Shown: positions 43,776 through 43,872 of the stretch, piece by piece
Layout: every line of letters starts with the position of its first letter
Numbering within the stretch: the first letter of the stretch is position 1
NCBI RefSeq assembly: GCF_016026235.1
Contig: NZ_CP065613.1
Length of the DNA: 64,000 nucleotides
DNA from: Escherichia coli
Lineage (GTDB): Bacteria > Pseudomonadota > Gammaproteobacteria > Enterobacterales > Enterobacteriaceae
Strand: one strand, 5' to 3'
Translations under genes and position numbers: made by a program
Notes under the pieces: model-generated
The model's database searches: none
What the model was told of the DNA's origin: nothing
What the model saw: the letters and a program-made list of their open reading frames with translations, nothing else

Positions 43776-43805
43776 GCACAAAAAACCCGCTTGTGGGCGG
43801 GTTTT
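43776..43805 (-). terminator. tR'-like terminator downstream of Q
   Basis: minus-strand CCCGCC-CACAA-GCGGG hairpin followed by TTTTTT, between Q and late genes. Confidence 0.6.
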
Positions 43806-43872
43806 GTTTGCTTTTGCCATCACGTACAAAATCGGCAAAATATCAGATTTGCATGAATATATGCCTTTCAAT

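Follow-up and report, generated by a model that had tools for sequence, protein, structure and literature searches.

The window analysed here, a 64,000-nt stretch of Escherichia coli DNA, carries on its minus strand a Q antiterminator gene and a short leader ending at a terminator hairpin, followed on the same strand by four tRNA genes, an S21-type holin gene, the lysozyme and Rz/Rz1 genes, an HNH endonuclease gene and a small terminase gene; RusA and DUF968 genes sit upstream of Q (Pfam). The features are listed below, all on the minus strand.

43873..44562, minus: Q antiterminator gene of the phage 82 family (Pfam PF06323)
43884..43879, minus: PR' -35 hexamer TTGCAA, lying within the final Q codons (promoter scan)
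43878..43862, minus: 17-bp PR' spacer AAGTAGATTGAAAGGCA, the expected (inferred) position of the Q-binding element (QBE); it holds the Q stop codon
43861..43856, minus: PR' -10 hexamer TATATT (promoter scan)
43852..43849, minus: probable transcription start region, placed from the IsrJ 5' end and the -10 spacing
43845..43837, minus: extended -10-like element TGATATTTT, a candidate for the sigma70-dependent pause element (SDPE) in the Q-utilisation site (conservation)
43840..43812, minus: leader hairpin 1 (UUUUGCC..GGCAAAA), its 5' arm overlapping the pause hexamer
43829..43826, minus: predicted position of the promoter-proximal pause, U 43828 before G 43827, placed from the 82PR' +25 pause
43805..43777, minus: tR'-like intrinsic terminator, a 9-bp stem and 6-nt loop with U6 then GUG
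43852..43778, minus: predicted short PR'-tR' transcript of ~71-75 nt, a putative IsrJ homologue
43712..43675, minus: tRNA promoter-like site (promoter scan) with -35 TTGCAA (43712..43707), 17 bp, -10 TATTAT (43689..43684) and discriminator CCTGCGCCC
43365..43674, minus: tRNA array CAU (tRNA-Ile/ileZ in relatives), Lys-UUU, Thr-UGU, Gly-UCC (ARAGORN, Rfam and homologue annotation)
41899..43072, minus: lysis cassette (Pfam PF04971, PF00959, PF03245, PF06085)
43072..42857, minus: S21-type holin
42857..42360, minus: lysozyme
42375..41899, minus: Rz
42143..41961, minus: Rz1, embedded in Rz

The Q ORF (44562..43873, minus) ends with a TAG at 43875..43873 and encodes 229 aa counted from a GTG at 44562, the phage 82-type ATG being at 44556. 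PF06323 was its sole Pfam match (E 6.2e-91, residues 6-219), bearing out the identification of the ORF as a Q antiterminator in the sequence-only reading of this DNA. PF06323 is the Q82 family and is distinct from the families of Q21 (PF06530) and Q-lambda (PF03589) (PMC9388147). As Pfam gave only PF06323, a phage 21 or lambda type was ruled out for this Q; PF06530 was absent from it in a search that did match PF06530 to the control Nil2 Q. The comparison with phage 21 and phage 82 qut sites that had been suggested was therefore apt for phage 82/434 (PF06323) and misplaced for phage 21. Identity to phage 82 Q was 74% for the Q of the window and 89% for that of phage 434. The GenBank record of phage 82 (X92588) ends at the Q stop codon, and phage 434 stands in for the 82 PR' region. 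Further upstream in the nin region, before DUF968-RusA-Q, lies an ORF for a Hok/Gef-family toxin (46425..46637, minus; PF01848, E 3e-23).

The sequence-only reading had looked for a sigma70-like promoter between Q and the hairpin, and the promoter scan found one, TTGCAA-17-TATATT (PR'), with 9/12 matches to the consensus. The search interval it had proposed, 43806..43872, does hold the -10 hexamer and the leader; the -35 hexamer lies outside it, within the Q codons. Comparable sites numbered 9 in 4 kb against 3.3 expected, and with the scan score being weak by itself, the case for PR' rests on conservation. We compared 89 loci, comprising 80 close E. coli relatives from IMG/VR, complete E. coli genomes and phages of other genera (Klebsiella, Enterobacter, Salmonella and Cronobacter, with Q 50-67% identical); Q identity across the whole set ranged from 50 to 100%. 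The -35 hexamer TTGCAA was present in 88/89 loci and the -10 hexamer TATATT in 83/89, the remainder having CATATT, TATACT, TACATT or CAGAAT. A TG(A/G)TATnnT element downstream was found in all 89, and in 85 of them its distance from the beginning of the -35 was exactly 40 bp. The promoter and leader aligned base for base with phage 434. The spacer resembles that of phage 434, and the pattern AA..(A/G)A(T/C)T.AA is seen again in diverse loci; because the Q C-terminus is encoded there too, this conservation is ambiguous with regard to a QBE. On the opposite strand, TTGCAACACTTTGC (43879..43892, + strand) overlaps the PR' -35 and fits the CII-box TTGCN6TTGC. The phage 434 record labels the equivalent site as CII site and paQ -35; it sits in the Q coding sequence and is kept in the E. 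coli lineage only.

The downstream element TGATATTTT has the extended -10 form TGnTAnnnT, and its block was invariant in an alignment of 10 diverse leaders. In 82PR' the QBE lies between the -35 and -10, and a -10-like element causes a pause at +25 (PMC4914094). By position and conservation, TGATATTTT is thus likely to be the sigma70-dependent pause and Q-loading signal of the window. The start site was placed with the aid of the Salmonella small RNA IsrJ, a 74-nt RNA whose 5' end was determined by primer extension (PMC2330248). Counting its mapped 5' end and length on the IsrJ locus sequence in Gifsy-1 (L088; ...ATTGCAAAACTGGATTAAAACGGCTATATTTTATGTAAATCTGATATCG...) gave a start at the G of ATG. 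The homologous start in the window would be G 43852, and A 43850/43849 is favoured by the -10 spacing, so the probable start is given as 43852..43849. When counted from G 43852, the -10-like hexamer occupies +11..+16, and 9 nt later is +25, which would set the predicted pause at the conserved U-G of TGTA (~43828/43827), a tetranucleotide common to the window and phage 434.

The leader ends at a hairpin formed by AAAACCCGC (43805..43797), the loop CCACAA and GCGGGUUUU (43790..43782, all minus), with the U-tract UUUUUU at 43785..43780 and then GUG. The 39-nt segment folded at -16.8 kcal/mol (z -3.9), and none of 200 shuffles was as stable. A strong minus-strand terminator had been reported about 70 bp past Q, and this holds: the first stem base is 67 nt from the Q stop, and the hairpin is both stable and conserved. 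The built-in terminator scanner reported it on the + strand only, missing the minus-strand version because the stem was extended through A-U pairs, leaving a T-poor tail; with the G-C core alone taken as the stem, the tail is TTTTTTGT. A scan of the whole window on both strands for hairpins of <= -12 kcal/mol abutting a T-rich tract gave 19 sites on the two strands, compared with 1-11 (mean ~6) in 10 dinucleotide shuffles, a rate at which any one 100-nt interval of one strand would hold such a site by chance with a probability of ~0.5%. The hairpin was kept in 10 diverse Q82-type loci, with compensatory changes in 3/9 pairs, and it was the one structure in the RNAalifold consensus of the 10 diverse leaders. 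Across lineages the leader varied from 55 to 101 nt, ended in every one by an intrinsic terminator, and the stems differed (CCCGC/GCGGG, GCCUCGC/GCGGGGC, GCCCGAGG/CCUUGGGC and GCCCAC/GUGGGC). These results support the hairpin as an intrinsic terminator ahead of the co-oriented late genes.

Leader hairpin 1, by contrast with tR', is weak alone (-7.4 kcal/mol, z -1.9), is missing in phage 434 and phiES15 and lies outside the RNAalifold consensus. We therefore dropped it as a conserved structure and treated it as lineage-specific; the Klebsiella and Enterobacter lineages have analogous leader hairpins that are non-homologous in sequence. The tR' hairpin itself is two-faced. Its + strand version (43782..43805) folds slightly more stably (-18.9 kcal/mol), runs into GUUUGCUUUU and could also stop antisense transcription from the late-gene side. 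A + strand small RNA ending at this hairpin was considered and rejected: there was no + strand promoter-like site upstream, and O157 relatives do not keep intact the inverted repeat CTTATCTC/GAGATAAG that flanks it. A 56-aa ORF spanning the hairpin (43871..43701) was without a Pfam match and was regarded as chance.

The distribution of these parts among phages showed where they had been joined. From the terminator down to the tRNAs, the sequence is common to the window, to phage Evi (which has a lambda-family Q, PF03589) and to the strain 99-3165 locus, where the sequence upstream is unrelated. The promoter, the pause element and the first 45 nt of the leader accompany a Q82-type gene in MFDS1006657 and phage 434, despite other downstream genes. 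These sharing patterns place a mosaic joint just upstream of the terminator, a position that would fit a generic terminator and a specificity set by Q plus PR'/qut.

Taken together, the Q family, the conserved promoter and pause spacing, the terminator structure and the gene order indicate, with a probability that we put at roughly 85%, that a lambdoid prophage of phage 82 type has its late-gene regulatory cassette here. We infer its start site, pause, Q binding and Q-dependent read-through as follows. The sigma70 RNA polymerase would start at PR', whose -35 overlaps the end of Q, and about 10 nt into the transcript sigma70 would re-bind at TGATATTTT, leading the polymerase to pause ~25 nt from the start. 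Without Q, the polymerase would escape and stop at the hairpin and U-tract ~73 nt from the start, releasing a short RNA homologous to IsrJ. With Q bound in the promoter spacer, the paused complex would be modified and would read through tR' and later terminators to reach the lysis, terminase and structural genes. Read-through would also cover the tRNA genes, which would in addition have a sigma70 promoter of their own beyond the terminator. For the lysis and morphogenesis genes, dependence on Q would be the best, and a plausible, reading.

The cassette shares with phages 82 and 434 a Q of family PF06323, a promoter that overlaps the 3' end of Q, the -35 TTGCAA, the 17-bp spacer, a TATAyT -10, TGrTATnnT within the initially transcribed region plus a short leader closed by an intrinsic terminator before the late genes. 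It differs in having 10 rather than 11 bp from the -10 to the TG, and a frameshifted Q tail. Compared with phage 434, the leader of the window is 19 nt longer, with an extra hairpin, and the downstream genes are tRNAs and a phage-21-type lysis cassette, whereas phage 434 has membrane-protein genes and an esterase gene. The Q82-family layout (-35, 17 bp, -10, 11 bp, TGnTATnnT, short leader, intrinsic terminator) is seen again in phage 434, in phages of Klebsiella, Enterobacter, Salmonella and Cronobacter, and at the Salmonella IsrJ locus.

At the IsrJ locus of Gifsy-1, the promoter, start region and pause-like element are homologous (there TTGCAA-17-TATATT-11-TGATATCGT), and the 5' 15 nt of the RNA and the genomic context are clearly so; IsrJ is there a 74-nt RNA closed by an intrinsic terminator, with a tRNA and late genes beyond it, and Gifsy-1 AntQ is 67% identical to the Q of the window. 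The central part of the RNA and the terminator stem differ, and in Gifsy-1 an isrK-orf45-anrP module separates antQ from IsrJ; the specialised cis/trans role of IsrK (PMC4825925) is without a counterpart in the window. When the predicted RNA was compared with Rfam, isrJ (RF01393) gave a full-length alignment over 43853..43781 at 24.5 bits, below its gathering threshold of 37, and isrK (RF01394) a full-length alignment at 22.7 bits, below its threshold of 50; the two alignments begin at 43853 and 43852 respectively and lie within 43853..43780. Judged from its sequence, the short PR'-tR' RNA is a homologue of IsrJ, yet it is no member of isrJ by the Rfam criterion. In Gifsy-1 (L088, 3013..3123) the IsrJ promoter carries an ancestral Q82-type Q end, ATT GCA AAA CTG GAT TAA (IAKLD*), and antQ ends differently from this remnant, so that isrK-orf45-anrP looks inserted between antQ and the original PR'. 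On this sequence comparison, IsrJ looks like the original Gifsy-1 PR'-tR' RNA.

The cassette also resembles the StxS and lambda 6S RNA systems, which share a constitutive late promoter, a premature stop at tR' and a short RNA in lysogens. It differs from them in having no sequence homology to them upstream of the tRNA promoter block; the Nil2 Q, unlike that of the window, is of family PF06530, and StxS is made as a 258-nt precursor that RNase E processes to 74 nt. The cassette would work like the lambda and Stx-phage PR'-tR' systems but is unrelated to them in sequence, and its closest characterised RNA is Salmonella IsrJ.

We considered whether the PR'-tR' RNA might have a role of its own, as a constitutive Hfq-binding, trans-acting small RNA (an IsrJ counterpart, StxS-like) with host or prophage genes of the lysogen as its targets; this would add to the switch and not replace it. 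Such a role seems doubtful to us, although several lines of comparison speak for it. Rfam titles both isrJ and isrK 'Hfq binding RNA', and the likeness to each runs over the full length, while the promoter and the pause element are the same at the IsrJ locus. In Salmonella, IsrJ has effects on invasion and on the translocation of effectors (PMC2330248), and StxS is a PR'-tR' RNA that acts as an Hfq-dependent regulator, for which its authors proposed a common class (PMC7547250). The RNA would end with the terminator hairpin and U6, preceded by the A-rich stretch AAAAGCAAACAAAA. The PR' core was found in 900 of 5,426 complete E. coli genomes, and the module is thus carried by ~1/6 of them, including O157:H7, O26, O103, O111 and O145 strains. 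Against this, both Rfam scores are sub-threshold, what is shared amounts to the pause element and the terminator, both already accounted for by the switch, and the middle of the RNA is unconserved between lineages, with hairpin 1 being absent from two phages as noted above. The EPEC prophage small RNAs PasA, PasB and PasC are moreover unrelated: blastn of window positions 42800..44000 against the E2348/69 PasA, PasB and PasC loci matched the holin and lysozyme genes only. Among EPEC PasA-D, PasA and PasC are antisense just upstream of a holin and PasB lies between tail genes. A likeness of a PasA target motif to the sequence after tR' was set aside as chance similarity, and the EHEC small RNA Esr41, encoded on SpLE1, is likewise unrelated. 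Somewhat less probable still is the more specific proposal that the 71-75-nt RNA would be an unrecognised E. coli IsrJ homologue serving as a constitutive Hfq-dependent trans-acting regulator. If a regulatory role were true, the A-rich linker and the additional hairpin of the leader would count as small RNA features and not as spacer.

The copy in the window has peculiarities of its own. The distance from the start of the -35 to the TG is 39 bp, not the 40 bp typical of the family in several genera, a spacing found only in the window and in L008, L009 and L015 among the 89 loci; the gap from the -10 to the TG is correspondingly short, one T being lost from TATATTT (43856..43861). One base (C) has also been lost from AAAACAAAA (~43905..43915, near the 3' end of Q), which puts the last 13 Q codons in another frame, so that the tail reads ...KKRRHFQSKVLQK rather than the family ...KQKAAFSKQSVAKVD (VLQK* vs VAKVD*). 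The same Q tail allele is marked as a frameshifted pseudogene by PGAP in FDAARGOS_943. For the promoter-to-pause segment, an exact match was found at 0 of 1,223 places in the 5,426 complete E. coli genomes, the best matches (98.5%) all differing by the 1-nt indel that shortens its spacing. These features could mean that the architecture is of the Q82 type in an impaired or decaying copy, in which Q loading and late-gene expression could be weak or lost. We consider decay unlikely, given that the Pfam domain (residues 6-219 of Q) is intact, the same Q sequence occurs in independent IMG/VR contigs (L008 and L009 at 100%), and the lysis and terminase genes downstream are intact. Both single-base deletions relative to close relatives fall within homopolymer runs; they may be assembly errors, or they may be real, and a real loss could leave the switch weakened.

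It is highly improbable that the hairpin is a mere bidirectional end-of-operon terminator of the early-right (nin/Q) transcript with no late promoter before it, which its two faces, its A- and T-rich flanks and its location at the end of the Q gene would allow, because the promoter and the -10-like element stand at fixed spacing in every Q82-type locus examined, the homologous Salmonella promoter yields a mapped 74-nt RNA, and no other promoter for lysis or morphogenesis was seen except that of the tRNAs.

The sequence-only reading had made the tRNAs dependent on Q antitermination, which is unsupported as stated, given their own conserved promoter-like site and the mapped start in a relative. 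In this promoter-like block, TTGCAA-17-TATTAT lies 10 bases ahead of tRNA(CAU), and the GC-rich discriminator CCTGCGCCC comes after it. GC-rich discriminators are typical of stable-RNA promoters. Next to the same tRNA, the block does not vary between Q82-, Q-lambda- and Q21-type phages, and in Sakai Sp5 the -10 and discriminator are identical, with a -35 of TTGCAG and a diverged spacer. In Sp5, an Stx2 phage, a tRNA transcription start was mapped upstream of the tRNAs, and Stx2 phages have tRNA genes after tR' with their own promoter (PMC7547250). Thus the tRNAs are probably expressed independently of Q, with read-through giving a boost. This corrects a common assumption, in that phage tRNAs would probably be expressed in lysogens from their own promoter and not solely after Q action. 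The first tRNA (43599..43674, minus) was called Met(CAU) by ARAGORN, whereas PGAP and the Sakai genome annotate its homologues as tRNA-Ile (ileZ, lysidine-type). The array here reads Ile2-Lys-Thr-Gly; behind the same promoter block, O157 and PPompW relatives have Ile2-Arg-Arg or Ile2-Lys-Arg.

As a Q/PR'/qut/tR' switch of the phage 82 type, the cassette is an ordinary and well-known one, and nothing in it is surprising to a phage specialist. Its value is for annotation: annotation in public records is limited to the Q gene and the tRNAs at this module, for which a late promoter, a probable pause and Q-loading site and tR' can now be given in ~900 of the complete E. coli genomes surveyed. The family-wide alignment further defines the Q82-type geometry as TTGCAA, 17 bp, TATATT, 11 bp and TGrTATnnT. 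Q82 is the only Q family lacking a loading-complex structure according to PMC9388147, and this geometry could help structural work on it. The comparison also ties the Salmonella small RNA IsrJ to the class of PR'-tR' transcripts.

The lysis cassette is phage-21-like and the Q switch phage-82-like, an instance of module mosaicism. Between tRNA-Gly and the holin gene, a 292-nt spacer (43073..43364, minus) folded at -92.5 kcal/mol (z -4.8 vs shuffles). It holds two long hairpins, GUCUUUCAGUC..GACUGAAAGAC and AUGAAUGAUCGC..GCGAUCAUUCAU, and a small CCGC-UUUU-GCGG hairpin followed by U6CU4 at ~43155..43133, just before S. These structures may serve as terminators or as sites where the tRNA transcript is processed, or may belong to an unannotated RNA; the hairpins could stop transcripts that begin at the tRNA promoter.
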